NCBI GenBank assembly: GCA_965204865.1
Contig: OZ242027.1
Coordinates: 3,779,986-3,843,985 of the forward strand
Reading direction: 5' to 3'
DNA from: Dehalococcoidia bacterium
GTDB lineage: Bacteria > Chloroflexota > Dehalococcoidia > Lucifugimonadales > UBA3495
Length of the DNA: 64,000 nucleotides
Shown here: one piece after another, positions 11,219 to 64,000 of the stretch
Position numbering within the stretch: position 1 is the stretch's first letter
How the letters are laid out: each line of letters opens with the position of its first letter
Notes under the pieces: generated by a model
What the model saw: the letters and a program-made list of their open reading frames with translations, nothing else
Told to the model about the DNA's origin: nothing
The model's database searches: none
Program-made: the position numbers and the translations under genes

Positions 11219-11304
11219 GTCTGAACTGTGATTCGTATGATTATTGGATTAGTATGATTTCCTAATCATGGTAATCTTGGAATCAGAGAAATCACAGTTC
11301 AGAC
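11219..11304. repeat. Family C MITE-like element, copy C1
   Basis: GTCTGAACTGTGATT...AATCACAGTTCAGAC terminal inverted repeats. The interior consists of periodic TGATT/AATCA arms. Confidence 0.85.
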
Positions 11305-24651: not shown

Positions 24652-24746
24652 GTCTGAACTGTGATTTATTTGATTTTGATGATTGGTATGATTTTTGATC
24701 CGAGAATCACGGCAATCAAATGAATCAGGCGAATCACAGTTCAGAC
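24652..24746. repeat. Family C MITE-like element, copy C2
   Basis: GTCTGAACTGTGATT...AATCACAGTTCAGAC. Flanked by AATT on both sides, the only clean candidate target-site duplication. Confidence 0.85.
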
Positions 24747-28956: not shown

Positions 28957-29044
28957 GTCTGAACTGTGATTTTTGTGATTCAGGGATGGGCAGGATGGCA
29001 CTGATTGATGATTCTCTGGATTCCGGCTTTCGCTGAAGTGACGG
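28957..29044. repeat. truncated family C left end fused to a degenerate family A unit
   Basis: GTCTGAACTGTGATTTTTGTGATT... lacks the right terminal repeat and runs into CTGGATTCCGGCTTTCGCTGAAGTGACGG. Confidence 0.75.
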
Positions 29045-36060: not shown

Positions 36061-36155
36061 GTCTGAACTGTGATTCGTTTGATTAAGTGATTGCCATGAT
36101 TTGGCGCCCACCCGAATCAGCGTAATCAGCTAATCACAAAAATCACAGTTCAGAC
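36061..36155. repeat. Family C MITE-like element, copy C4 (between SBP and permease genes)
   Basis: GTCTGAACTGTGATT...AATCACAGTTCAGAC. Lies 12 nt after the SBP stop and 8 nt before the permease ATG. Confidence 0.85.
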
Positions 36156-38298: not shown

Positions 38299-38384
38299 GT
38301 CTGAACTGTGATTCATGGGATTAATGGATTAGCGTGATTTTTAAATCATGGGAATCATGGAATCAGAGAAACCACAGTTCAGAC
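38299..38384. repeat. Family C MITE-like element, copy C5
   Basis: GTCTGAACTGTGATT...AACCACAGTTCAGAC. Confidence 0.85.
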
Positions 38385-52309: not shown

Positions 52310-52378
52310 TCTAGCCACGTCCCTCCCCCTGCTGTCTTCCCGCCTAACTCACCTTTGTGTGAGGTCATTCGTTTTATT

Positions 52379-54694
52379 ATGGCAACTGAACTTGCAACCC
52401 CCACAGTGGTCCACCGCGACATCGGCGGGGAAACCCTGGTACTGGAAACCGGCCGCCTGGCCTTCCAGGCCCATGGCGCGGTCACCGTCCGCTACGGCGA
52501 GTCCATCGTGCTGGCGACCGCCGTGATGTCGGACCGCCCCCGCGCCGAGGACATTGACTTTCTGCCCCTGACCGTGGACTACGAAGAAAGGCTCTACGCC
52601 GCCGGGCGCATCCCCGGCAGCTTCTTCCGGCGCGAAGGCCGCCCCGGACAGGAAGGCATCCTGGCCTCCCGGCTCACCGACCGGGCCATCCGGCCCCTGT
52701 TCCCCAAGGGCCTGCACAACGACGTGCAGATTACCCTGACCGTCCTCTCCGCCGACCAGGAGAACCCGCCGGAAATCCTGGCCATGGTGGGCGCGTCGGC
52801 GGCCCTCGCCATCTCGCAGATACCCTTTGAGGGCCCCATCGGAGCCTGCCGCATTGCCTACCGCAACGGGCAGTACGTCATCAATCCGACCTACCAGGAG
52901 AGCGACGACAGCACCCTGAGCATGGTCATCGGCGGCACCCGCGAGGCCATCATCATGGTGGAGGCCGGCAGCGACGAGGTGTCGGAGGAAGTCATCCTCG
53001 AAGCCATTCGGCGGGCGCAGGAAGCCAACAGCGAAATCATCTCGCTCATCGAGGAACTGACAGCCCAGGTGGGACAGCCCAAGGTGGAGGTCAAGACCGA
53101 CAAGGAGGCCGCCGAGAAACTGGATAGCAGCATCCGGGGAGTCGTAGGCACCCGGCTGGCCGACGCGCTGGAAGAAAACCTGGACAAGGTGCCGCTGGAA
53201 GCCCGCGAAAACGCCCTGCGCGATGAGGTCAACGAGAAGCTGGCCGAGGAATTCGGCGAGAAGGCCCTCTCCGAGGGTTTCAAGAGCGTGATGCGCGACG
53301 AGGTGCGCCGCCGCATCCTGGAGCGGCACATCCGCCCCGACGGGCGCTCGCTGGAAGAGATTCGCCCCATCACCTGCGAGGTGGGCGTCCTGCCCCGCAC
53401 CCACGGCTCCGGCCTGTTCACCCGCGGCATGACCCAGGTGCTGTCCACCGTGACCGTGGGTTCGCTGTCGATGAAACAGACCCTCGACACCGTGGGGCCG
53501 GACAACACCAAGCGGTTCATGCACCACTACAACTTCCCGTCCTTCTCCACCGGCGAGGCCCGCCGCGTGGGGTCGCCGGGCCGCCGCGAAATCGGCCACG
53601 GCGCACTGGCGGAGCGGGCCATCCTGCCCGCCCTGCCCTCGGAAGATGAGTTCCCCTACGCCATCCGCGTGGTGTCGGAAGTGCTTTCCTCCAACGGCAG
53701 CACCTCCATGGGCAGCGTCTGCGGCACCTCGCTGGCCCTGATGGACGCCGGCATTCCGGTCAAGGCCCCGGTGGCCGGCATCGCCATGGGCCTGGTGACC
53801 GGCGACGACGGCCAGTACGCCATCCTCAGCGACATTCAAGGCATCGAGGACTTCCTGGGCGATATGGACTTCAAGGTCGCCGGGACCGAGAACGGCGTAA
53901 ACGCCCTGCAAATGGACATCAAGTGGACCGGACTGACCCAGGAGATACTGGCCCAGGCCCTGGAGCAGGCCCGCGTGGGGCGGCTGTACATCATGGACAA
54001 GATGGCCCAGGCCATCACCAGCCCCAACCGGCAGATGAGCCCCCACGCCCCCAAGATGATTCGCCTGAAGATCAACCCCGACAAGATTGGCGCTCTCATC
54101 GGCCCCGGCGGGCGGGTAATTCGCGGCATCCAGGAAGAGACCGGCACCAACATAGACGTGCAGGACGACGGCACGGTCACCATCGGCGGCGTGGACCAGA
54201 CCATGCTGGAGATGGCGCAGTCCAAGGTGGACAGCTTGACCCGCGAGCTGGCCGTCGGCGACATCTTCACCGGCAAGGTGGTGCGCCTGACCAACTTCGG
54301 CGCCTTCGTCGAGCTGGTGCCGGGCCGCGACGGTCTCATCCGCAACGGCGATCTGGGCGACCTGGAAGAGGACCTGACCGAGGGACAGGAAATCACGGTG
54401 ATGATCCACGAAATCGACTCTCAGGGCCGGGTGAACCTGTCGCGCCGCGCTCTCTTCGGCGACGACAGCCCGCCTGCGCCTCGCACCGACTCCCCTCGCC
54501 CGGCCTTCGACCGCGGCGGACGCGGCGGCGACCGGGGAGGACGCAACGGCGGCTTCGGCGGCGGACGCGGCGGCAACGGCGGCGGCGGGCGGCGCAACGG
54601 CGGTGGCGGCGGGCGCCCCATGGGCGGCGGTCGCGGCCCCGGCGCAGGCCAGGAACGCCGCTTCGACGGCGGCGGACGCGGCCCGCGCAGCTAG
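52379..54694 (+). CDS. pnp: polyribonucleotide nucleotidyltransferase (PNPase) with an RGG-rich C-terminal tail
   Basis: Two RNase PH domains, KH (GPGGRVIRGIQEETG), S1 (GDIFTGKVVRLTNFGAFVEL), then about 70 aa of RGG/GGR repeats. Confidence 0.95.
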   Translation: MATELATPTVVHRDIGGETLVLETGRLAFQAHGAVTVRYGESIVLATAVMSDRPRAEDIDFLPLTVDYEERLYAAGRIPGSFFRREGRPGQEGILASRLTDRAIRPLFPKGLHNDVQITLTVLSADQENPPEILAMVGASAALAISQIPFEGPIGACRIAYRNGQYVINPTYQESDDSTLSMVIGGTREAIIMVEAGSDEVSEEVILEAIRRAQEANSEIISLIEELTAQVGQPKVEVKTDKEAAEKLDSSIRGVVGTRLADALEENLDKVPLEARENALRDEVNEKLAEEFGEKALSEGFKSVMRDEVRRRILERHIRPDGRSLEEIRPITCEVGVLPRTHGSGLFTRGMTQVLSTVTVGSLSMKQTLDTVGPDNTKRFMHHYNFPSFSTGEARRVGSPGRREIGHGALAERAILPALPSEDEFPYAIRVVSEVLSSNGSTSMGSVCGTSLALMDAGIPVKAPVAGIAMGLVTGDDGQYAILSDIQGIEDFLGDMDFKVAGTENGVNALQMDIKWTGLTQEILAQALEQARVGRLYIMDKMAQAITSPNRQMSPHAPKMIRLKINPDKIGALIGPGGRVIRGIQEETGTNIDVQDDGTVTIGGVDQTMLEMAQSKVDSLTRELAVGDIFTGKVVRLTNFGAFVELVPGRDGLIRNGDLGDLEEDLTEGQEITVMIHEIDSQGRVNLSRRALFGDDSPPAPRTDSPRPAFDRGGRGGDRGGRNGGFGGGRGGNGGGGRRNGGGGGRPMGGGRGPGAGQERRFDGGGRGPRS

Positions 54695-54701
54695 GGTTTT
54701 C

Positions 54702-54728
54702 GACGCAAAGGCGCAAAGACGCAAAGAG
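54702..54728. repeat. Family F short repeat (GACGCAAAGGCGCAAAGA)
   Basis: The same 18-mer occurs at 61112..61129. A related AACGCCGAGAGCGCAGAGAACGCCGAG lies at 25571..25597. Confidence 0.75.
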
Positions 54729-54765
54729 CGCAGGGAGCTTGTCTTTCTCTGCGCTCTTCGCTTTT
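54724..54765 (+). terminator. terminator candidate after pnp
   Basis: AAGAGCGCAG / CTGCGCTCTT 10-bp stem with a 15-nt loop, followed by CGCTTTT. Confidence 0.5.
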
Positions 54766-54789
54766 AATTATCCTGTTTAATCATCCCGG

Positions 54790-55587
54790 ATGGAGGCTAT
54801 GATGGCTGCGATTCGAGTTGTGATACATGGCGCAACCGGCAAGATGGGCGTCGAGACCGTCGCCGCCGTCTGCCGCGAGAGCGATATGGAGCTGGTGGGC
54901 GCGGTCTGCCGCACCGACCGGGGCGGCGTGCTGCCCACGCCGTCGGGCGATGTGCCGCTGTCCACCGACCTGGCGCAAATGCTGGACGACACCCGCCCCG
55001 ACGCGATGGTGGACTTCACCAACTCCGCCGCCTGCATGGAGGCCGCCCATGCCGCCGCCGCCCGCAAGGTCAACCTGGTGCTGGGTTCCAGCGGCCTCAA
55101 CGCCGACCATCACGCGCAGTTGGACGCCCTGGCCAACGACAATGGCGTGGGCATCATCGTCGCCCCCAACTTCGCCCTCGGCGCCATCGTGCTGAAGAAG
55201 CTGGCGGAGCAGGCCGCGCCCTTCTTCGACTACGTGGACATCGTGGAATCCCACCACGAGATGAAGATAGACGCCCCTTCCGGCTTCTCGCTGGCCCTGG
55301 CCAACAGCCTGGCCGGGCAGAAGCAGTTCACCCGCAACGTGACCGAGAAGGAGAACCTGCCGGAGACCCGGGGCGGCAACGTCAACGGCGTAACCGTCCA
55401 CAGCGTCCGCCTGCCCGGCCGGAGCGCCCACCACGAGGTGGTCTTCGGCGCGGCGGGCCAGACCGTCACCCTGCGCCACGACACGCTGGGCCGCGACTGC
55501 TATATGCCCGGCGTCGTCCGCTGCATCCGCGAAGCCGCCGCCAAGCCCGGCCTGGTGGTGGGGTTGGAGAACGTGCTGGGGCTGTAA
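54790..55587 (+). CDS. dapB: 4-hydroxy-tetrahydrodipicolinate reductase
   Basis: IRVVIHGATGKMG, and ESHHEMKIDAPSG (E-x-HH-x-K-x-DAPSGT-like). Confidence 0.9.
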   Translation: MEAMMAAIRVVIHGATGKMGVETVAAVCRESDMELVGAVCRTDRGGVLPTPSGDVPLSTDLAQMLDDTRPDAMVDFTNSAACMEAAHAAAARKVNLVLGSSGLNADHHAQLDALANDNGVGIIVAPNFALGAIVLKKLAEQAAPFFDYVDIVESHHEMKIDAPSGFSLALANSLAGQKQFTRNVTEKENLPETRGGNVNGVTVHSVRLPGRSAHHEVVFGAAGQTVTLRHDTLGRDCYMPGVVRCIREAAAKPGLVVGLENVLGL

Positions 55588-55722
55588 TTGAGGCCCACGG
55601 AGCGCTGGAATCGCTCGCGGTGTCACCGCAATTTCCACTTCCTTAGCAACCGGACAAGACCAATACCGCGGTCCCGTCTGATATAGTATTTTTACGAAAC
55701 TCAAAAAGGAGAAGGTGTTCCC

Positions 55723-56763
55723 GTGGAAGAATTGACCATTGCCGTTGTTGGCGCTACCGGAGCCGTGGGCGCAGAGTTCCTGCGCATCGTGGAGCAGCGC
55801 TATGCCAAGCCGCCCACCCTGCGGTTGATGGCGTCCCAGCGCTCCGCCGGCAAGCGCATCGCCGTAGGCGGCGAGGAACTGGTGGTCGAGGAAGCCGCGA
55901 AGGACTCCTTCGAGGGCGTGGACGTCGCGTTTATCTCAGCCAGCTCTGCGGTCAGCCGCGATCTGGCGCACCACGCAGTGGCCGCCGGGGCGGTGGTCAT
56001 AGACGACGGCTCGGCCTTCCGCATGGAGGCCAACGTGCCGCTGGTGGTGCCCGAGGTCAACGGCGAGGACGTGGAGTGGCACGAGGGCATCATATCCATA
56101 CCCAACTGCTCTACCACGCCGCTGGTGATGGCGGCCCACCCCCTGCGCCAGCTTGCGCCCATCCGACGCGTCATCGCCGACACCTACCAGTCGGTTTCCG
56201 GCGCCGGGGCGGCGCTGGTGGCCGACCTGCGCGAGCAGTCCGGGCGACTCATCGACGCCGACCACGCCGCCACCGCCAGCGAGCCGGGGCAGATTGCCTA
56301 CAACCTGATTCCCCAGATAGACCGCTTCATGGACACCGGCTATACCTACGAAGAACAGAAGATGCGGCAGGAATCGCAGAAGATTCTGCACGACCCGGAG
56401 CTGCAAATCTCCGCCACCTGCGTCCGCGTGCCGGTGTACGTGTCCCACAGCGCGGCAGTGCACCTGGAGTTCGAGCGCCCCGTATCCGTCGGCGAGGCCC
56501 GCGAGGCCCTGACGGCGATGCCCGGGCTGACCGTGCTGGACGACCCGGCCAACGCCGCCTACCCCATGCCCTGGGACGTTTCCGGCGAGGACGACGTGTT
56601 CGTGGGCCGCATCCGGCAGGACATCTCCAACCCCAACGGCCTGGCCCTGTGGATCGTCTCCGACAACCTGCGCAAGGGCGCGGCCCTCAACAGCCTCCAG
56701 ATAGCCGAGGAGCTGGTGAAGCGCGATCGCCTGAAGCCGCGCGCCGCAGCCGCCCGCGTCTAG
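55723..56763 (+). CDS. asd: aspartate-semialdehyde dehydrogenase
   Basis: IAVVGATGAVG and IPNCSTT (active-site Cys). GTG start. Confidence 0.95.
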   Translation: MEELTIAVVGATGAVGAEFLRIVEQRYAKPPTLRLMASQRSAGKRIAVGGEELVVEEAAKDSFEGVDVAFISASSAVSRDLAHHAVAAGAVVIDDGSAFRMEANVPLVVPEVNGEDVEWHEGIISIPNCSTTPLVMAAHPLRQLAPIRRVIADTYQSVSGAGAALVADLREQSGRLIDADHAATASEPGQIAYNLIPQIDRFMDTGYTYEEQKMRQESQKILHDPELQISATCVRVPVYVSHSAAVHLEFERPVSVGEAREALTAMPGLTVLDDPANAAYPMPWDVSGEDDVFVGRIRQDISNPNGLALWIVSDNLRKGAALNSLQIAEELVKRDRLKPRAAAARV

Positions 56764-56780
56764 GCATCAGGAGCCAACGT

Positions 56781-56801
56781 CCCCTCTCCCTCTGGGAGAG
56801 G
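56781..56801. repeat. Family D repeat, partial
   Basis: CCCCTCTCCCTCTGGGAGAGG. Confidence 0.8.
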
Positions 56802-56835
56802 AAGAACGAAAACCTCCCCTCGACGCGCCATAGGG

Positions 56836-56863
56836 TTGCGGCTATGTCAACCGCGCGTATAAT
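56836..56863 (+). promoter_or_regulatory. promoter candidate upstream of dapA
   Basis: TTGCGG, a 16-nt spacer, then TATAAT. Confidence 0.35.
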
Positions 56864-56911
56864 AGGCGCAAAAGCGAGCATCCGAGACATACGAATGAAG
56901 GGAGGGCAATT

Positions 56912-57802
56912 ATGGCTGAGATAGGCAGGCTCATAACGGCGATGGTCACACCGTTCGACGCCGAGGGGAAGGTGGACTACGAACAGGCCAAGCGGCTTGC
57001 CAACGCCCTTCTCGACTCCGGCAGCGACGGGGTCATCGTTTCAGGGACTACCGGCGAGTCGCCCACGCTGACTACCGACGAGAAACTGCGCCTGTACGCC
57101 GAGGTCAAGGAGTCTGTCGGCGAGCGGGGCGCGGTCATCGCCGGCACCGGCAACTACAGCACCGCCGAAAGCATCGAGCTGACCATGGAAGCCGAGAAGA
57201 CCGGCGTGGACGGCCTGCTGCTGGTGGTGCCTTACTACAACAAGCCGCCGCAGGAGGGGCTGTACCAGCACTTCAAGGCCATCGCGGAAAGCACCAGCCT
57301 GCCGGCCATCGTCTACAACGTGACCAGCCGCACCAGCCTGAACATGACCCACGAGACCACCATCCGCCTCAGCGAGATCGAGAACATCGTGGGTATCAAG
57401 GAAGCGGGCAGCGACATGGACCAGATAACCCGCATCATAGACGGGGCCAAGCCCGGCTTCCTGGTGTGGAGCGGCAACGACAACGAGACCTTCTACATCA
57501 TGGCCACCGGCGGCTATGGCGTGGTCAGCGTCGCCTCGCACCTCATCGGCAGCCAGATAAAGCAGATGATGGGCCTGCTGCTGGAAGGCGACGTGGAGGG
57601 CGCCGCCGCCGAGCACCGCCGGATGCTGCCGATGTTCAAGGTGCTGTTCGTGGAGTCCAACCCCATCCCGGTCAAGTACGGCCTGAACAAGGCGGGCTTC
57701 AACGTGGGCAACCCCCGCCTGCCCCTGATCCCGCCGTCCGAAAGGGCCGCCGCCGAAATCGACAAGGTGATGTCGCAGTACACCATAGACCTGCCGGTCT
57801 AG
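56912..57802 (+). CDS. dapA: 4-hydroxy-tetrahydrodipicolinate synthase
   Basis: TAMVTPFDAEGKVDYE, GTTGESPTLT, and YNVTSRT. Confidence 0.95.
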   Translation: MAEIGRLITAMVTPFDAEGKVDYEQAKRLANALLDSGSDGVIVSGTTGESPTLTTDEKLRLYAEVKESVGERGAVIAGTGNYSTAESIELTMEAEKTGVDGLLLVVPYYNKPPQEGLYQHFKAIAESTSLPAIVYNVTSRTSLNMTHETTIRLSEIENIVGIKEAGSDMDQITRIIDGAKPGFLVWSGNDNETFYIMATGGYGVVSVASHLIGSQIKQMMGLLLEGDVEGAAAEHRRMLPMFKVLFVESNPIPVKYGLNKAGFNVGNPRLPLIPPSERAAAEIDKVMSQYTIDLPV

Positions 57803-57925
57803 CGACGGCTGAACCTGCGGAACCCGCAGAGTCACGACGGAACAAAGATAGGGGGCGTATGCCCCCTATCGTTTCTTAAAGCCCGAATCCTCGACTTCCC
57901 AAGGAACAAAGAACGAGCGGGCTAA

Positions 57926-58207
57926 TCAATCAGTTGTGGCATGACGCAAAGGACTCGTTGACTGATTGGACGTTTCCATTGTAGCGAATTGGAAAACCCG
58001 CATTTCGATTGACCTGGTTGGGGCAGCCCCCTTGTTGACCATCCTACGCACCGTCTCAGCGGTTTCAAGGCTGAACGATTGCTCTCCGCAGCGAACACAG
58101 ACCTCGGCAGGGATACGTTCCACCAACACATACTCCTCGTCAATCTTGAAAACTTCGTCCACTACTTCAGAGCGGCTCTCCTTGCATCCGCAGACTGCAC
58201 ACTCAAA
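57926..58207 (-). CDS. YgiT-type zinc-finger protein (MqsA-like antitoxin N-domain)
   Basis: MFECAVCGC...VCVRCGEQ CxxC pairs. Lies 5 nt downstream of the DUF4258 gene. Low-GC islet. Confidence 0.7.
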   Translation of the reverse strand, partial: FECAVCGCKESRSEVVDEVFKIDEEYVLVERIPAEVCVRCGEQSFSLETAETVRRMVNKGAAPTRSIEMRVFQFATMETSNQSTSPLRHATTD

Positions 58208-58212
58208 CATAG

Positions 58213-58524
58213 TTACCTCCGAGTAGTGTAGTCGATCCAATCGGCCGGGTCAGGCTCGTACACTGTTATTACCCTGACAACACTGGTATCCGCCAGAGAT
58301 ACCTGAATATGCAGCGGCCTGTCGGCATAAGTGAATCCCAGCATAAGACAACTGGGTGAGTATTTGTCATCAGGGTACTCTTCAATGACGATTGCCGATT
58401 CCCCTGCCTGCCTGATTTCCGATTCGCTAATCTCCCGTTGAACAAGTCGCCTGACAACGTGCAGTGTAAGATCGAATTCGGAGTTTGAAAGCTGCCTGCG
58501 AACATCGTCCAGTGACTTTGCCAT
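58213..58524 (-). CDS. DUF4258 domain-containing toxin-like protein
   Basis: FDLTLHVVRRLVQREISESEIRQAGESAIVIEEYPDDKYSPSCLMLGFT...VVRVITVYEPD. Confidence 0.75.
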   Translation of the reverse strand: MAKSLDDVRRQLSNSEFDLTLHVVRRLVQREISESEIRQAGESAIVIEEYPDDKYSPSCLMLGFTYADRPLHIQVSLADTSVVRVITVYEPDPADWIDYTTRR

Positions 58525-58548
58525 TCATGTTGCTCTTTAACCGGTATC

Positions 58549-61080
58549 CTACCGCAACTGCGCCACCGTCACTCCCTCGCCGCCGGGGCCTTCGCCATCG
58601 CCTGCGCCGGACACCAGCGGGTGGTCCGCCAGGTACTCGCGGATGGCGCGGCGCAACGCCCCCGTCCCCTTGCCGTGGATGATGCGCAGCAACGACGCGC
58701 CGTCCAGGGCGGCGTCGTTGAGGGCGGTGTCCACGCGGGCGACGGCCTCGTCCACCCGCAGGCCGCGCAGGTCCATCTCCGGGTCGGGGCGGCGGGGCGC
58801 GGATGGGCGGTTGGCTGCCCGGTCGAGGTAGACCCCCTGGCGTGCGGCGGTGGGGTGGCCTTCGGCGAGGCTCTGCAACTGGTAGACCGGAATCTTGGCC
58901 CGCATGGTTCCCAGCAGCACCTCCACCCGCTGCGCCTGCGCCGGATTCCCGCCTTCGCGGGAATGACGGGAAGTGCGGGAAGGACGGGCGGGTTCGGGCG
59001 GCGTGATGACCTCCACCGGCTGGCTGATGCCGCGCACGTATACCCGGTCGCCACTCTTGAGCCGTTCCTGCCAGGGCGCACGCCTGATTTCGATGGGCTG
59101 CCAGTTGGCGGCGTCCAGCTCCCGCTGCACCTCGCGCAGGTCGCGCTGGCTCTCCCGCAGGTCATCCCGGCTCTCCTGCCCGGTAGCAGGCGCTCGGATA
59201 CGCCCGGCGGCGGGCTGGACTGTTGCTGCGCTGGCCGCCAGCTCCATTGACCGCTCCGCCCGTTGCAGGCGGTCCACTATGTCGGCGGTCCGCAGTTGCA
59301 GCTCGCGGCGGGCTTCCTCCACCAGCTCGGTCTTGGTGGCCTCCACCGACGATAGCTGCTCCTCCACTTCCTTCTGCATCCTGACAGCAGCCAGACGCGA
59401 CGACTCTGCCTCCTCTTTCAACTGCTCGACAGTGCGGCGTTCCTGTTGCAGCTCCCGCAGCAGCGTTTCGGTGGCCTGCTCCACCGGCGATACTCCGGCG
59501 CTGGCATCCTCGATGATTTCCTGCGGCAGCCCCAGCCGCGCCGCGATGGTCAGCGCGTAGCTGCGGCCCGGCAGCCCGACGGTTAGCTGGTAGGTGGGCG
59601 CCAGAGTCGTCGGGTCCAGGTCCACGCTGGCGTTCAGCATACCCGGGTGTTCCTGCACCGTGCGGGCCACGCCGCGCTGGTGGGTAGTGCCGACCAAGAA
59701 CACGCCCATCCGCTGGAAGTGGCGCAGCACGGCGCTGGCCAGCGCGGCCCCTTCCTCCGGGTCGGTGCTGGTTCCCAGTTCGTCCACCAGCACCAGCGAG
59801 CGGCCAGTGGCCCGGCGCATAATGTCCAGCAGGTTGGTGATGTGGGAGCTGAACGTCGAAAGCGACTGCTGGATACTCTGCTGGTCGCCGATGTCGGCAT
59901 AGATGCCGTCGAACCCCGGAAAGCGGGCGTCCTCGGCCGGGACGTGCAGCCCGGCGTGGGCCATCATCGCCAGCAGGCCGACGGTCTTCAGGGCCACCGT
60001 CTTGCCCCCGGCGTTGGGGCCGGTGACGAGCAGCACGCCGCGCTCCGAGTCCAGCGACAGGCTGATAGGCACCACGTCGCCGTCCTTCGACTGGCCCAGG
60101 AGCAGCGGATGACGGGCGCGACTCAGGCGCAGGCGGCGCAGCGTAGCCTGCTCTCCCTCGCTGTCGCTCTCCGCACCCTCGTCTTTGTCCTCAATAACCG
60201 GCGCCGTGGCCCGCAACGCCGCCGAATACCGCGCCTTCGCCACGTCCAAGTCCAGCCGCGCCACGATGTCCAGGGCCAGCAGCAGGTCCTCGCCGGTGTC
60301 GCCGACGCGGTTGGTCAGGTGCCGCAGCACCCGCTCCACCTCGCGCTCCTCGGCCAGCCGGGCCTCGCGCCAGCGGTTGCCCATATCCACCGCCGCCATG
60401 GGCTCGACGAACACCGTCGCGCCGCTGTCGGAAACGTCGTGGACGATGCCCGGCACGCGGTAGCGCATCTCGGTCTTGATGAGCAGCACCATACGCCCGT
60501 TGCGCTGGGTGATGAGCGGCTCCTGGACCACCTCTGACCGCTGGAAGCGGCGCAGGTTGCGCTCCATGATTTCGTTCAGGCGGTTCTGCGCCTGCCGCGA
60601 CTCGGCCCGCAGACGCCCCAGCAGCGGGCTGGCGTAGTCCAGCACCTCCCCGGCCGGGCTGATGGCCGCGCCGATTTCGCTGTCCAGATGCCCCAGCTCC
60701 GGTATGTTGCTGGCGAGACTGGACAGGAGCGGCAGACTTTCTTGGCGTACAAGCTCGTCGCGGTCGTAGCGGGCGGCGCGGGCGAAGGCGCGGACGGCGT
60801 ACAGTTCCTCGCCGCGCAGCAGGCCGCCCAGCATGGCGCGGTGAATCAGCTCGGTGATGTCGTTCTCCGGCCCGAACTCCAGCGAGCCGCCGCCGTCAAT
60901 GTAGCGCCGGGCTTCGGTGGTTTCCTGCTGCCGTGTCGCCACCTCCAGCAGGTCCTCCGACGGCTCCAGCGCGGCCACCTTCTCCCGCCCCAGCGCCGTG
61001 CGGCAGTACGACGCCACCTGCCCCAGCACCTGGTCGAACTCCAGCAACCGCCCGGCCTTCTCAAAACCGCCCAGAGTCAT
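58549..61080 (-). CDS. mutS2: endonuclease MutS2 (MutS paralogue with KOW-like and Smr domains)
   Basis: LEFDQVLGQVASYC, Walker A VTGPNAGGKTVALKTVG, LVDELGTSTDPEEGAAL, and Smr LDLRGLRVDEA...IHGKGTGALR. Confidence 0.95.
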   Translation of the reverse strand: MTLGGFEKAGRLLEFDQVLGQVASYCRTALGREKVAALEPSEDLLEVATRQQETTEARRYIDGGGSLEFGPENDITELIHRAMLGGLLRGEELYAVRAFARAARYDRDELVRQESLPLLSSLASNIPELGHLDSEIGAAISPAGEVLDYASPLLGRLRAESRQAQNRLNEIMERNLRRFQRSEVVQEPLITQRNGRMVLLIKTEMRYRVPGIVHDVSDSGATVFVEPMAAVDMGNRWREARLAEEREVERVLRHLTNRVGDTGEDLLLALDIVARLDLDVAKARYSAALRATAPVIEDKDEGAESDSEGEQATLRRLRLSRARHPLLLGQSKDGDVVPISLSLDSERGVLLVTGPNAGGKTVALKTVGLLAMMAHAGLHVPAEDARFPGFDGIYADIGDQQSIQQSLSTFSSHITNLLDIMRRATGRSLVLVDELGTSTDPEEGAALASAVLRHFQRMGVFLVGTTHQRGVARTVQEHPGMLNASVDLDPTTLAPTYQLTVGLPGRSYALTIAARLGLPQEIIEDASAGVSPVEQATETLLRELQQERRTVEQLKEEAESSRLAAVRMQKEVEEQLSSVEATKTELVEEARRELQLRTADIVDRLQRAERSMELAASAATVQPAAGRIRAPATGQESRDDLRESQRDLREVQRELDAANWQPIEIRRAPWQERLKSGDRVYVRGISQPVEVITPPEPARPSRTSRHSREGGNPAQAQRVEVLLGTMRAKIPVYQLQSLAEGHPTAARQGVYLDRAANRPSAPRRPDPEMDLRGLRVDEAVARVDTALNDAALDGASLLRIIHGKGTGALRRAIREYLADHPLVSGAGDGEGPGGEGVTVAQLR
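58943..58969. repeat. Family A unit inside the mutS2 CDS
   Basis: GGATTCCCGCCTTCGCGGGAATGACGG, translated in frame as SRHSREGGNP. Confidence 0.85.
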
Positions 61081-61111
61081 TCAGCAATCTCCATACTTCA
61101 CGGAAGGATTA

Positions 61112-61155
61112 GACGCAAAGGCGCAAAGATTTCTTTATTAGACCTGCTTTGCGTC
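61112..61155. repeat. Family F repeat forming a hairpin between the VLRF1-like gene and mutS2
   Basis: GACGCAAAG (61112..61120) pairs with CTTTGCGTC (61147..61155). No U-tract on the minus strand. Confidence 0.7.
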
Positions 61156-61156
61156 A

Positions 61157-61933
61157 TTACGTCATCGCGTTGAAATCAATGGTCCAAACCCGGCTCTCGG
61201 TCAGCATCGCGGCGACCTGCGGCAGGGTATCCCGTTTCGGGTCGCGGATGTTAAGGCGGCGTTTCAGTGTTATGGGCTGTAACGAGGCCAGCGCCGGGCA
61301 TTCCTTCAGTAGGCCGTTCAGGGTGAACCGTTCGCCGCCCAGCACCAGGTAGTCCAGTTGCGCCGTCGGGGGCATCAGGTGGGCGCGGGTTTCCTGGCAC
61401 ACCTTGTCGTACAGCCGCTTGATCTGCCCGTCGCGCACCCGCGTATAGCGCAACTGCGAGGTGCCACCCGCATGGTGCTTGCCCTTGACGTAGCGGGAAT
61501 CGGTTTTCGAGTCCAACAGCTCTCCGCCGCGAAAGACGGCTACCGAGAACCGCCCCAGTCGCACCAGAACCACCCCCACGGTAGCTTCGGCGTCCAGAAT
61601 CCGCCGCAGGGGGGCGTCATCCCAGTCGAGCGCCAAGAACGTCTCTTCAACCGGAAACGGCGGGGCAATCAGCAGCCCGCGCTCGCCGGCCCGAAGTCCC
61701 ACCAGCCCGCAGCTGTCGCGCAAAGCGCCTTCCCCAAACCCGGCCAAGGGCGTCGCCCACCCCGTCGCGGCCATCGCCGCCGGATCAGGGCTGTCGCCGG
61801 GAGCGAGGTACAGCGACGACGCGGCCGTGCCAGCGTCTTCCGCCAGCTCGTTTAGCATACGCCGCAGCCGGGCAGCGGAAACCGTTTCCCCGGTCATCGT
61901 GTTTCTGACGCTCATACATAACGATTGTATCAT
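61157..61933 (-). CDS. Vms1/ANKZF1-family (VLRF1, eRF1-like) putative peptidyl-tRNA hydrolase
   Basis: VGVVLVRLGRFSVAVFRGGELLDSKTDSRYVKGKHHAGGTSQLRYTRVRDGQIKRLYDKV matches the VLRF1 pattern (beta-hairpin GxFA-like, then a GG-x-SQ-x-R-F/Y loop with the catalytic Gln), followed by LVLGGERF. Confidence 0.7.
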   Translation of the reverse strand: MIQSLCMSVRNTMTGETVSAARLRRMLNELAEDAGTAASSLYLAPGDSPDPAAMAATGWATPLAGFGEGALRDSCGLVGLRAGERGLLIAPPFPVEETFLALDWDDAPLRRILDAEATVGVVLVRLGRFSVAVFRGGELLDSKTDSRYVKGKHHAGGTSQLRYTRVRDGQIKRLYDKVCQETRAHLMPPTAQLDYLVLGGERFTLNGLLKECPALASLQPITLKRRLNIRDPKRDTLPQVAAMLTESRVWTIDFNAMT

Positions 61934-61965
61934 CGCCGCCTTGCCGCTCGCGTCAGAAGGGAGGC

Positions 61966-62071
61966 ATCTGAACTGTGATTAGTTTGATTAAGGGATTTCT
62001 CTGATTTCGTCGCCTTTGCAATACACTAGCAATCATGGCAATCATATAATCAAACGAATCACAGTTCAGAC
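61966..62071. repeat. Family C MITE-like element, copy C6
   Basis: ATCTGAACTGTGATT...AATCACAGTTCAGAC. Ends 17 nt before the TTG start at 62089. Confidence 0.85.
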
Positions 62072-62088
62072 AATACAAGGAGAAGTCT

Positions 62089-62886
62089 TTGAGTCCCGAA
62101 GAAAGAGAATCAATCCTGCAACGGCGCGATGCCGCGCTGCAACGCCTCGACGAAGGGCATCAGGTTCTGCTGCAATCCCTGGAAGGGCTGGAAACCGAAG
62201 AGGCGTTCCTCGGCCAGCGATGGTCGGTGCGCGACGTGCTGCTGCACCTGGACTCGGAGCGGTACGTGGACGCGCTGGAGAAGATTGCCCGGGGCGAGAT
62301 GGAAATGCTGCCGCCCTTTTCCAGTCGCGAGGAGCATTTCCGGCAGGAACTCGAGCGCCAGGAAGCCACCCATCAGCGGTTTCGCGCCCTGCTCACCGAG
62401 CTGACGCCGGAGCAGTTGGCCCGTCCGGCGACGCCGCCCAACCCGGCCAACTCCTTCCCTGGTCTGACTCTGCTGGAGTTGCTGGAACGCTCGGCAGGCC
62501 ACGAGGCCAGCCACGCCCGGCAGATTGACCTCACCCGTCAGTTCATCGCCGCCTTCCGCTCGCAAGAGCGGGCGTTGAATATCGCCGCCCTGGGCGACGG
62601 CGACCCGGCCCGCCTGTCGCAACAGGTGAAGGACCTGCTGAACATGGCCGACTACGTGGTGGGCGAGGCTGACGCTCTGGCCGCCGTCAGCCACCTGGTG
62701 CGCGGCGTCCGGCTTACGATGCACCCCGGCAACCGCGAGGAGATGGTCAACCGAGCCGCCCGCGAGACCCGAGAAGGACTGTGGGCCATAGTCTGCGTGA
62801 TGGACAACGGCGGAGACGACGACGAAACGGTGGCCCTGGCCCGCCAGCACGCCGACGCAGTAGCGGTGCACCGGCCGGTAGCGTAG
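62089..62886 (+). CDS. DinB-family domain fused to a short tetrapyrrole-methylase-like C-terminal segment
   Basis: The N-terminal half is RWSVRDVLLHLDSE...ERSAGHEASHARQI (DinB_2-like). The C-terminal part LNIAALGDGDPARLSQQVKDLLNMADYVVGE...WAIVCVMDNGGDDDE resembles the first subdomain of TP_methylases. TTG start after AAGGAG. Confidence 0.6.
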   Translation: MSPEERESILQRRDAALQRLDEGHQVLLQSLEGLETEEAFLGQRWSVRDVLLHLDSERYVDALEKIARGEMEMLPPFSSREEHFRQELERQEATHQRFRALLTELTPEQLARPATPPNPANSFPGLTLLELLERSAGHEASHARQIDLTRQFIAAFRSQERALNIAALGDGDPARLSQQVKDLLNMADYVVGEADALAAVSHLVRGVRLTMHPGNREEMVNRAARETREGLWAIVCVMDNGGDDDETVALARQHADAVAVHRPVA

Positions 62887-62909
62887 CGAACTGCACTCGA
62901 CGTCCGGCC

Positions 62910-63144
62910 CTGGATTCCCGCTTTCGCGGGAATCCAAACCCCCGTCGCCTGTCAATTTGACCACCTAATTCAGAACCCTGCCGTCCGCCAACAGGTCAAT
63001 TGCATTATAGGCCGCACACCCGTCACTCCGGCGAAAGCCGGAGTCCAGAAACCATGGTGTGAACGAAATCGAGAGGATAATTGATGATTTCGCTCTCTGG
63101 ATTCCGGCTTTCGCCGGAATGACGGGGATAATGCGATTGCCCTG
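62910..63144. repeat. cluster of family A units
   Basis: 62910..62987 is homologous to 12201..12283. Paired units at 63019..63048 and 63097..63125, then GCGATTGCCCTG as in the palindrome at 38589. Confidence 0.85.
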
Positions 63145-63278
63145 CGCCCGCCAATGCCGCGCTTTCGTGTGGCGGGGTTCTTTGCTATACTTGATACTTG
63201 TGTTGCCGCGCCCTTCACGGGGACGGCTTCCTTTTGCGCGGGGCGCAGTCTATTTGTGTTATGTAAGGCGGTCTAGGA

Positions 63279-64000
63279 ATGCCGGCATACGCCGTTATCG
63301 GGGGCCAGTGGGGCGACGAGGGCAAGGGGAAAGTCATTGACTACCTTGCCGGGGAGGTGGATAGCGTCGTGCGATATGCCGGCGGCAACAACGCCGGCCA
63401 TACCGTGGTCAACGAGCAGGGAGAGTTCCAGCTTCACCTGGTGCCGTCGGGCATCTGCTGGCCCGACTGCGACGGCATCATCGGCAACGGCGTGGTGGTT
63501 GACCCCGACGTGCTGCTGGACGAGATGGAGATGCTACGCGGACGCGGCATAGACACCAGCAAGCTCCACGTCAGCGAGCGCGCCCACGTCATCATGCCCT
63601 ATCACGTGATGCTGGACGCCCTGGAAGAGCAGGCCCGCGGCTCCGGGGCCATTGGCACCACCGGCCGCGGCATCGGCCCGGCCTACGTGGACAAGACCGG
63701 CCGCGATGGCATCCGCGTCGGCGACCTGCTGGACTGGGATTCCCTGACGCCGAAGCTCAAGCGCGTGCTGGAGCGCAAGAACCAGCTCATCACGAAAATC
63801 TATGGCGGCGAAGCCTTGTCACTGGAGGAACTCAAAGACAGGTGCCGCCAGTGGGCCGAGCAGCTACGTCCTTACGCCCACCCAACCGAGCAGATAGTCC
63901 AGGACCGGCTGGCCGACGGGAGACGAGTGCTGCTGGAAGGAGCGCAGGGAACACTGCTGGACTTGGACCACGGCTCGTACCCCTACGTCACATCGTCATC
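63279..64000 (+). CDS. purA: adenylosuccinate synthetase, N-terminal part (3' end outside window)
   Basis: MPAYAVIGGQWGDEGKGKVIDYL, GGNNAGHTV, and GTTGRGIGPAY. Open to the window edge and absent from the ORF track because no stop lies in the window. Confidence 0.95.
   Translation, partial: MPAYAVIGGQWGDEGKGKVIDYLAGEVDSVVRYAGGNNAGHTVVNEQGEFQLHLVPSGICWPDCDGIIGNGVVVDPDVLLDEMEMLRGRGIDTSKLHVSERAHVIMPYHVMLDALEEQARGSGAIGTTGRGIGPAYVDKTGRDGIRVGDLLDWDSLTPKLKRVLERKNQLITKIYGGEALSLEELKDRCRQWAEQLRPYAHPTEQIVQDRLADGRRVLLEGAQGTLLDLDHGSYPYVTSS

Follow-up and report, generated by a model that had tools for sequence, protein, structure and literature searches.

An apparent operon of mutS2 and an acVLRF1-family release-factor homologue in Dehalococcoidia as a candidate split-and-release pair for ribosome rescue

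The window analyzed here, a 64,000-nucleotide stretch of a Dehalococcoidia bacterium genome (phylum Chloroflexota; assembly GCA_965204865.1, contig OZ242027.1, forward-strand positions 3,779,986 to 3,843,985), carries on its reverse strand two adjoining genes that appear to form an operon: a gene for a 258-amino-acid protein of the acVLRF1 family (61157..61933) and, downstream of it, mutS2 (58549..61080), which encodes an 843-amino-acid MutS2 protein of the RqcU type. Both gene families are known and annotated; the new part is the conserved MutS2–acVLRF1 operon, which appears to be unreported. In the literature searched we found no published report of the pairing, and it goes unmentioned in a MutS2 paper that shares its bioinformaticians with the VLRF-1 survey. 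Of the refuting conditions named in the first-pass annotation, all that lend themselves to computation turned out in favor of its hypothesis. We regard it as an evenly balanced proposition that the operon encodes two consecutive steps of ribosome rescue, in which the ribosome is split and the nascent chain is then released.

The upstream gene belongs to a family of release-factor homologues. The first-pass annotation had recognized VLRF1 hallmarks in its open reading frame (ORF), namely the segments VVLVRLGRFSVAVFRGG at amino acids 121-137 and KGKHHAGGTSQLRYTRVRDGQ at amino acids 150-170, and profile searches bear the assignment out. Pfam PF18859 (acVLRF1) matches amino acids 118-249 with E=1.7e-28 (99.8 bits, where the cutoff is 27.1) and covers positions 2-129 of the 130 in the profile; the only other Pfam matches at E<=0.1 are weaker ones, to baeRF_family10 and eRF1_2. 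The corresponding NCBIfam model, NF041024, scores 120.3 bits, slightly below its cutoff of 125, and homologues near and far bear the NCBI names ‘acVLRF1 family’ or ‘Vms1/Ankzf1 family peptidyl-tRNA hydrolase’. Judged by these matches, the protein is a member of the acVLRF1 family.

Structure prediction agrees with this placement. AlphaFold2, given an alignment of 41 sequences, yields a confident model (pLDDT 93.1, pTM 0.87) in which a small N-terminal alpha/beta domain is joined to an RNase-H-fold M domain. The top PDB fold matches found with Foldseek are eRF1 and aRF1 (E ~3e-10), followed by Balon (~1e-6), Pelota/Dom34 (~1e-5), and, as a weak match, 60S-bound yeast Vms1 (structures 6R84/6R87, E=2.5e-4, TM 0.43). 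When PDB sequences were searched with the family profile, archaeal aRF1 (3AGK) was recovered at E=1.5e-21, and no Vms1 chain was found at E<=1. The earlier description of the gene as ‘Vms1/ANKZF1-type’ is therefore sound for the acVLRF1 family and the aeRF1 fold but not as a statement of resemblance to Vms1, since the Pfam VLRF1 model does not match the protein at E<=0.1 and the Vms1 fold match is so weak; ‘Vms1-type’ is the clade label of Burroughs and Aravind 2019 (PMC6514570), not a sign of close similarity.

By direct comparison, the protein is a truncated aRF1-like protein with the C domain absent and the N domain reduced, and is nearer to aRF1 than to Vms1. It is 258 amino acids long versus 373-416 for aRF1, its alignment to aRF1 spans only residues 1-266 of the chain with the N domain heavily gapped, and Pfam finds neither the N domain (eRF1_1) nor the C domain (eRF1_3) in it. 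Its score of 44.3 bits for TIGR03676 (class-1 aRF1/eRF1), where the cutoff is 234.7, places it outside the class-1 release factors. Having lost the stop-codon-reading N part and the GTPase-binding C domain, it cannot be an ordinary codon-dependent release factor. Neither a Rei1-type zinc finger nor ankyrin repeats nor a VIM appear among its Pfam matches, and its C-terminus (...VWTIDFNAMT) is without an ArfB-like basic tail.

The putative catalytic loop, identified by sequence reading, alignment to aRF1, and conservation, is G156-G157-T158-S159-Q160 (GGxSQ), whose codons lie at 61454..61468 on the reverse strand. In the HMM alignment the family consensus GGsSQrRF sits on GGQSQRRY of aRF1; Thr158 occupies the position of the canonical GGQ glutamine, and Gln160 lies two residues C-terminal of it, at the start of a long helix in the predicted model. 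The proposal that the GG-x-SQ loop corresponds to the catalytic loop of release factors is upheld by this alignment, with the glutamine two residues later. Because of that shift, the loop is not a true GGQ; GGTSQ fits the GGxSQ motif described for aVLRF-1 and acVLRF-1, and GTSQ within it fits the GxuQ pattern described for Vms1 (PMC6514570). The window protein has both the GGxSQ loop and the arginines of the following helix that characterize the family.

Conservation across 201 acVLRF1 family members is concentrated in the loop and the helix after it. G156 and G157 are invariant (100%), S159 is conserved in 99%, the helix arginines R162, R165, and R167 in 98-99%, and H153 in 95%, so that His153 and Ser159 are both more strongly conserved than the supposed catalytic glutamine, Q160, which is present in 76% (Ala 17%, Ser 6%). 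Position 158 is Ser in 57%, Gln in 18%, and Thr in 17%. Loops across the family accordingly take the forms GG[ST]SQ, GGQSQ (in which the canonical GGQ is kept), GGQSA, and the Gln-less GGSSA or GGSSS (~20%). In bacterial release factors, the Gly-Gly backbone counts more for catalysis than the glutamine side chain, and Gln-to-Ala variants keep much of their hydrolytic activity. Loss of the glutamine therefore does not prove inactivity, and by analogy the Gln-less family variants need not be inactive.

The domain matches of the downstream gene, like those of acVLRF1, lie well outside what chance would give. TIGR01069 matches amino acids 8-842 of the 843 with 723.7 bits (cutoff 400), and Pfam finds MutS_V and Smr only, without the MutS I/II mismatch-recognition domains. 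The ABC-type ATPase domain (amino acids 351-528, 59497..60030, reverse strand; MutS_V E=1.5e-34) carries a Walker A motif, GPNAGGKT, and a Walker B motif, LVLVDELG, and the Smr domain (amino acids 770-843, 58552..58773, reverse strand; E=2.4e-20) carries DLR (MDLRGLR) and HGKGTG (IIHGKGTG) motifs by alignment. On these domains and motifs, the ORF is MutS2/RqcU. MutS2 of Bacillus subtilis, which has the same DLR/HGxG state, binds collided disomes and splits them, leaving the mRNA uncut, and does so in vitro without a cofactor (PMC10897456). We infer from orthology and motifs that the window MutS2 would likewise sense collisions and split ribosomes in an ATP-dependent manner.

MutS2/RqcU is characterized by a KOW domain that binds uS10; the KOW-like region of the window MutS2 gives only a sub-threshold MSSS/SH3 match (13.8 bits, amino acids 677-695); it can be aligned with relatives and is split by an insertion of ~20 amino acids. 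This insertion is in frame and is encoded by a repetitive extragenic palindrome (REP)-like palindrome, GGATTCCCGCCTTCGCGGGAAT, inside the mutS2 frame (58935..58964). The inserted residues, ...SRHSREGGNPAQAQ..., occur in the window and in its closest relative (L002), are shorter in two further relatives (L003 and L005), and are absent from the other MutS2 proteins compared. The palindrome belongs to a second family of repeats in the window, GGATTCCCGC(c/t)TTCGCGGGAAT, with copies at 58935-58964 (in mutS2), 62904-62933, 63019-63049, and 63096-63126.

The two genes are closely spaced. The acVLRF1 stop codon ends at 61157 and the mutS2 ATG begins at 61080, which confirms the earlier reading of the two as same-strand neighbors with acVLRF1 76 bp upstream. 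The 76-nucleotide spacer (61081..61156, reverse strand) contains an imperfect hairpin of CGCAAAG-type repeats at ~61112..61155 and then a GGAG (61089..61092) located 8 nucleotides before the mutS2 ATG, a context conserved in relatives. Folding gives -28.4 kcal/mol over 106 nucleotides (z = -2.2), and no U run follows the hairpin. Its arm, GACGCAAAGGCGCAAAGA (CGCAAAG-type, 61112-61129), recurs at 54702..54727, after the PNPase gene (3 matches against 0.05 expected), so the label ‘repeat hairpin without a U-tract’ used in the first-pass annotation is accurate. Nor is the hairpin terminator-like: a terminator scan of 58000..62600 gave 0 such sites against 2.7 expected. All promoter-like matches in the same interval were irrelevant, and an Rfam scan of 57500..63500 returned one sub-threshold snoRNA-like chance match and nothing else. 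The spacers of relatives hold a similar hairpin in L005, another sequence in L002, and none in L003, where the spacer is 12 nucleotides long; we therefore rejected the idea that the hairpin is a regulatory element kept among relatives.

The pairing extends well beyond the window. A scan with one genome per species yielded at least 491 relatives, of which the closest 80 were kept; these best 80 are all Chloroflexota, mostly metagenome-assembled genomes of Dehalococcoidia, and range from 91% down to 30% identity. With the window MutS2 as tblastn query against the +/-10 kb around acVLRF1, 26 of the 80 species-level genomes were found to have MutS2 directly adjoining acVLRF1 in the same orientation, against a chance expectation that we estimate at 80 x 2/3000 = 0.05 adjacent loci. 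The sample leans toward the query's relatives and holds few independent events, amounting to two or three architectures. In a neighbor-joining tree of acVLRF1 proteins, the VLRF>MutS2 order fills the whole clade to which the window belongs, apart from two losses (L007 and L020), and this clade reaches down to 40% identity for VLRF and 49% for MutS2. In a separate acVLRF1 clade the genes stand the other way round, MutS2>VLRF (L030, L063, L068, L071, and L072), and in the remaining clades no MutS2 lies within +/-10 kb. Starting from the MutS2>VLRF clade, a scan of metagenomes returned 80 contigs, 63 of them informative in having enough upstream DNA, and in 58 of these MutS2 lies directly upstream on the same strand, mostly at 14-60 nucleotides.

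Spacing and context in the relatives point the same way. Intergenic distances are 12-60 nucleotides, or the genes overlap by 4-7 nucleotides, with overlapping stop and start codons in some pairs. In one locus (L045, 9917-13726) a gene for a DUF6141 membrane protein (174 amino acids) stands between acVLRF1 and MutS2 and overlaps the latter by 4 nucleotides. The genes that flank the pair vary by locus, with no other neighbor conserved; MutS2 is the commonest acVLRF1 neighbor in both the genome and the metagenome sets, and the next commonest (RpiB, SDR, alpha/beta hydrolase, and methyltransferase) are metabolic and limited to particular clades. No gene fusions of VLRF and MutS2 were found, all MutS2 ORFs being 788-870 amino acids long. 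A pair that survives reshuffled surroundings in both orientations bears the usual signature of a functional operon, and given the shared strand, the short spacer free of terminators, and an adjacency kept across divergent genomes, we consider this pair an apparent operon. The expectation that related genomes would share the adjacency thus holds for Chloroflexota, in two gene orders and 26 of 80 genomes, but for two subclades and not for the family as a whole.

Loci without MutS2 were also surveyed for other conserved partners. The candidates (RpiB, SDR, Abhydrolase_10, a fragment of a thiamine pyrophosphate (TPP) enzyme, RDD, a UvrD-like protein, an ABC ATPase, and an MscS-like protein) are clade-limited and have no link to translation, and were rejected. 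At one locus (L076, 9887-11085), acVLRF1 has the Gln-less loop GGSSS, and its gene converges on one for a stand-alone Smr protein of 113 amino acids (Pfam Smr E=1.4e-22), the single case of VLRF beside an Smr protein other than MutS2; the gene that follows we take to be SelA-like.

The pairing gains interest from what is known of ribosome quality control (RQC) in this phylum. In one survey, mutS2 was found in 35/41 Chloroflexota genomes (PMC11633108), whereas among the 1306 Chloroflexota genomes in Supplementary Table 1 of another, RqcH was detected in ~26% and RqcP in <0.1% (PMC11317155). These figures suggest a splitter unaccompanied by the canonical tailing machinery in many Chloroflexota and make an RqcH-independent route plausible at the level of the phylum. 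A tblastn search of the window, the 80 genome loci, and the 80 metagenome loci found no rqcH, a search of low power made with a B. subtilis RqcH query that Pfam recognizes as NFACT_N with 579.8 bits. The NFACT domain is likewise absent from the five window ORFs of 510-626 amino acids that were scanned. The termination of bacterial RQC has been described as unknown (PMC8012679), and PMC11317155 knows of no dedicated termination factor and gives the general enzyme Pth that role in B. subtilis. Bacterial VLRF-1 proteins have been said to occur independently of other RQC components (PMC6514570), in a 2019 paper that predates the recognition of MutS2 as a ribosome splitter. We found no other paper describing bacterial VLRF-1 and no experimental study of any bacterial VLRF-1.

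We propose the following course of events. With its Smr and KOW-like domains MutS2 would recognize collided ribosomes, and its ABC ATPase would split the leading one, a step established for the B. subtilis orthologue, leaving a 50S subunit with peptidyl-tRNA still attached. The acVLRF1 protein would then move into the empty A-site side of this obstructed 50S, with its GG loop (GGTSQ) set at the peptidyl-transferase center, where the nascent chain could be freed either by hydrolysis of the peptidyl-tRNA ester or by removal of the 3'-CCA end of the tRNA, as in Vms1/ANKZF1, two chemistries that sequence alone cannot separate. The analysis itself shows the domain identities, the fold, the conserved motifs, the operon-like arrangement, and a pair kept in two gene orders; that 50S-peptidyl-tRNA is the substrate, and in what order and by what chemistry the proteins act, we infer. 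A bolder form of the proposal, in which MutS2 and acVLRF1 make up a self-contained, tailing-independent split-and-release RQC in Dehalococcoidia lineages without RqcH and RqcP, we advance only tentatively and think somewhat improbable.

Several observations weigh against this proposal. At the level of the loop, Gln160 is offset by two residues from the glutamine of the canonical GGQ, about 23% of family members do not have it, ~20% have no glutamine at either loop position, and Gln-less loops occur in MutS2-linked members too. At the level of gene order, 54 of the 80 genomes have no MutS2 within +/-10 kb of acVLRF1, which means that the link is clade-specific or that the two genes act together from separate loci. 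The acVLRF1 family is also described in Actinobacteria (PMC6514570), a group in which mutS2 is recorded in 0/3213 genomes (PMC11633108), so acVLRF1 cannot depend strictly on MutS2; rqcH is recorded there in 0/3213 (PMC11633108) and in 0% of 6679 genomes (PMC11317155). Finally, B. subtilis completes RQC with Pth, and a dedicated release factor is thus not logically required.

The alternative that best survives is that acVLRF1 is a stand-alone, codon-independent release factor which, like ArfB, would act on intact stalled 70S ribosomes in parallel with MutS2, the adjacency reflecting co-regulation. Burroughs and Aravind proposed prokaryotic VLRF-1 proteins as release factors of a single component in specialized settings (PMC6514570), and the actinobacterial members, in a group for which the survey records no MutS2, would fit such a role, as would the two thirds of sampled Dehalococcoidia acVLRF1 loci that do not adjoin mutS2. 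The presence of arfB in only 11/41 Chloroflexota genomes (PMC11633108) would leave a niche for another non-stop rescue factor. Yet acVLRF1 has neither a module for sensing a codon or an empty mRNA channel nor a GTPase-binding C domain, which leaves it no obvious means of delivery to a 70S A site, and tight pairing in two orientations with overlapping stop and start codons is more typical of genes in one pathway. We consider this alternative unlikely.

Less probable still is a non-catalytic role, in which acVLRF1 would merely occupy the A site, either as a Pelota/Dom34-like adaptor that aids splitting by MutS2 or as a Balon-like hibernation factor. The Foldseek matches to Pelota/Dom34 (E ~1e-5) and Balon (~1e-6) beside those to eRF1 are consistent with such a role, as is the ~20-24% of the family, MutS2-linked members included, that carries GGSSA or GGSSS without a glutamine; moreover, ribosome recycling in archaea and eukaryotes, by eRF1 or Pelota with ABCE1, offers a parallel for pairing an ABC ATPase with a protein of the aeRF1 family (PMC10897456). 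However, the B. subtilis MutS2 needs no cofactor for splitting disomes in vitro (PMC10897456), and acVLRF1 is without the C domain by which Pelota, eRF1, and Balon bind their GTPase. The full conservation of Gly156-Gly157 and the 99% conservation of Ser159 reveal a constraint on the loop stronger than in the baeRF-1 families, where the catalytic loop region is poorly conserved, the glutamine is mostly lost, and the proteins are probably inactive (PMC6514570). As set out for the loop variants, moreover, release-factor enzymology makes loss of the glutamine no proof of inactivity.

That the adjacency is meaningless, an inherited Dehalococcoidia synteny in which MutS2 could act on DNA as a suppressor of recombination, is very improbable: each arrangement is confined to one acVLRF1 clade, with few independent events, and earlier literature gave MutS2 roles on DNA, but the pair is conserved while its surroundings are not, occurs in two opposite gene orders and a third with an inserted gene (L045), persists to ~40% protein identity, and involves a MutS2 without MutS mismatch domains and with the Smr motifs of a collision sensor.

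On the bolder, tailing-independent reading, acVLRF1 would be the first dedicated termination factor of bacterial RQC and a prokaryotic functional counterpart of Vms1/ANKZF1. Nascent-chain release is the least understood step of bacterial RQC, and a splitter together with a release-factor homologue in a conserved operon is a concrete, testable candidate for the missing step. The pair would also suggest a simpler RQC design, splitting and then direct release, in a phylum with RqcH in about a quarter of its genomes, and it has a bearing on how the Vms1 step of eukaryotes arose in evolution.

The surroundings of the pair in the window are marked by repeats and by genes of other kinds. Palindromic intergenic elements of ~85-105 nucleotides with the termini TCTGAACTGTGATT...AATCACAGTTCAGA, which resemble miniature inverted-repeat transposable elements (MITEs) or REP elements, give 11 terminus matches against 0.2 expected; copies lie at 61967-62070, 11220-11303, 24653-24745, 36062-36154, and 38300-38383, with a single end at 28958-28971. 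One of these copies fills the intergenic region between acVLRF1 and a divergent DinB_2 gene and is conserved in the closest relative, L002. On the other side of the pair, also on the reverse strand (57926-58524), a DUF4258 gene (E=3.9e-21) starts 24 nucleotides after the mutS2 stop and is followed by an overlapping gene for an MqsA-like zinc-ribbon protein; together they look like a toxin-antitoxin module, and the closest relative carries a DUF2283 gene in their place. Farther downstream of the pair, the forward strand (52355-57802) has the order pnp, dapB, asd, dapA. In the closest relative, Pfam finds S15, PNPase, DapB, semialdehyde dehydrogenase, and DHDPS, an ordinary conserved synteny with the window.

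The pair can be compared with several known systems. The best relatives of acVLRF1 in sequence and fold are aRF1/eRF1 and Pelota, which with ABCE1 likewise join an aeRF1-family protein to an ABC-type splitting ATPase; unlike aRF1/eRF1, acVLRF1 is without the NIKS/YxCxxxF stop-codon-reading N part and the C domain and has Thr at the position of the GGQ glutamine, and MutS2 is not homologous to ABCE1 and binds collided disomes differently (PMC10897456). ArfB (YaeJ) resembles acVLRF1 in being small, in its Gly-Gly loop, and in the proposed activity of a codon-independent peptidyl-tRNA hydrolase in rescue, but it has the unrelated fold of bacterial release factors and a basic C-terminal tail for sensing an empty mRNA channel in the 70S ribosome, whereas acVLRF1 has the archaeo-eukaryotic fold and no basic tail. 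Balon is another bacterial member of the aeRF1 superfamily, with a fold match of E ~1e-6. It has ~360 amino acids and a C domain, binds EF-Tu, and is without a GGQ-type loop, whereas acVLRF1, with 258 amino acids, has an invariant GG loop but is missing the C domain.

Two further systems for comparison are the RQC pathways of B. subtilis and of eukaryotes. In B. subtilis, MutS2/RqcU hands over to RqcH with RqcP/YlmH and then to Pth, and the MutS2 architecture, the Smr motifs, and the logic of splitting first and handling the 50S afterwards are shared with the window; there, however, release of the chain falls to Pth once it has been Ala-tailed, and mutS2 has no release-factor gene beside it, whereas the window has a release-factor homologue in the same apparent operon. 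With Vms1/ANKZF1, acVLRF1 shares the aeRF1 superfamily, the RNase-H-fold M domain, a Gly-x-small-Gln loop (GTSQ fits GxuQ), and arginine in the next helix, as well as the proposed role of freeing the nascent chain from peptidyl-tRNA on the large subunit after splitting, which in eukaryotes is the 60S. It differs in the double glycine of its loop (GGxSQ) and in its partner, which is the MutS2 ATPase and not the eukaryotic splitting and Cdc48 machinery.

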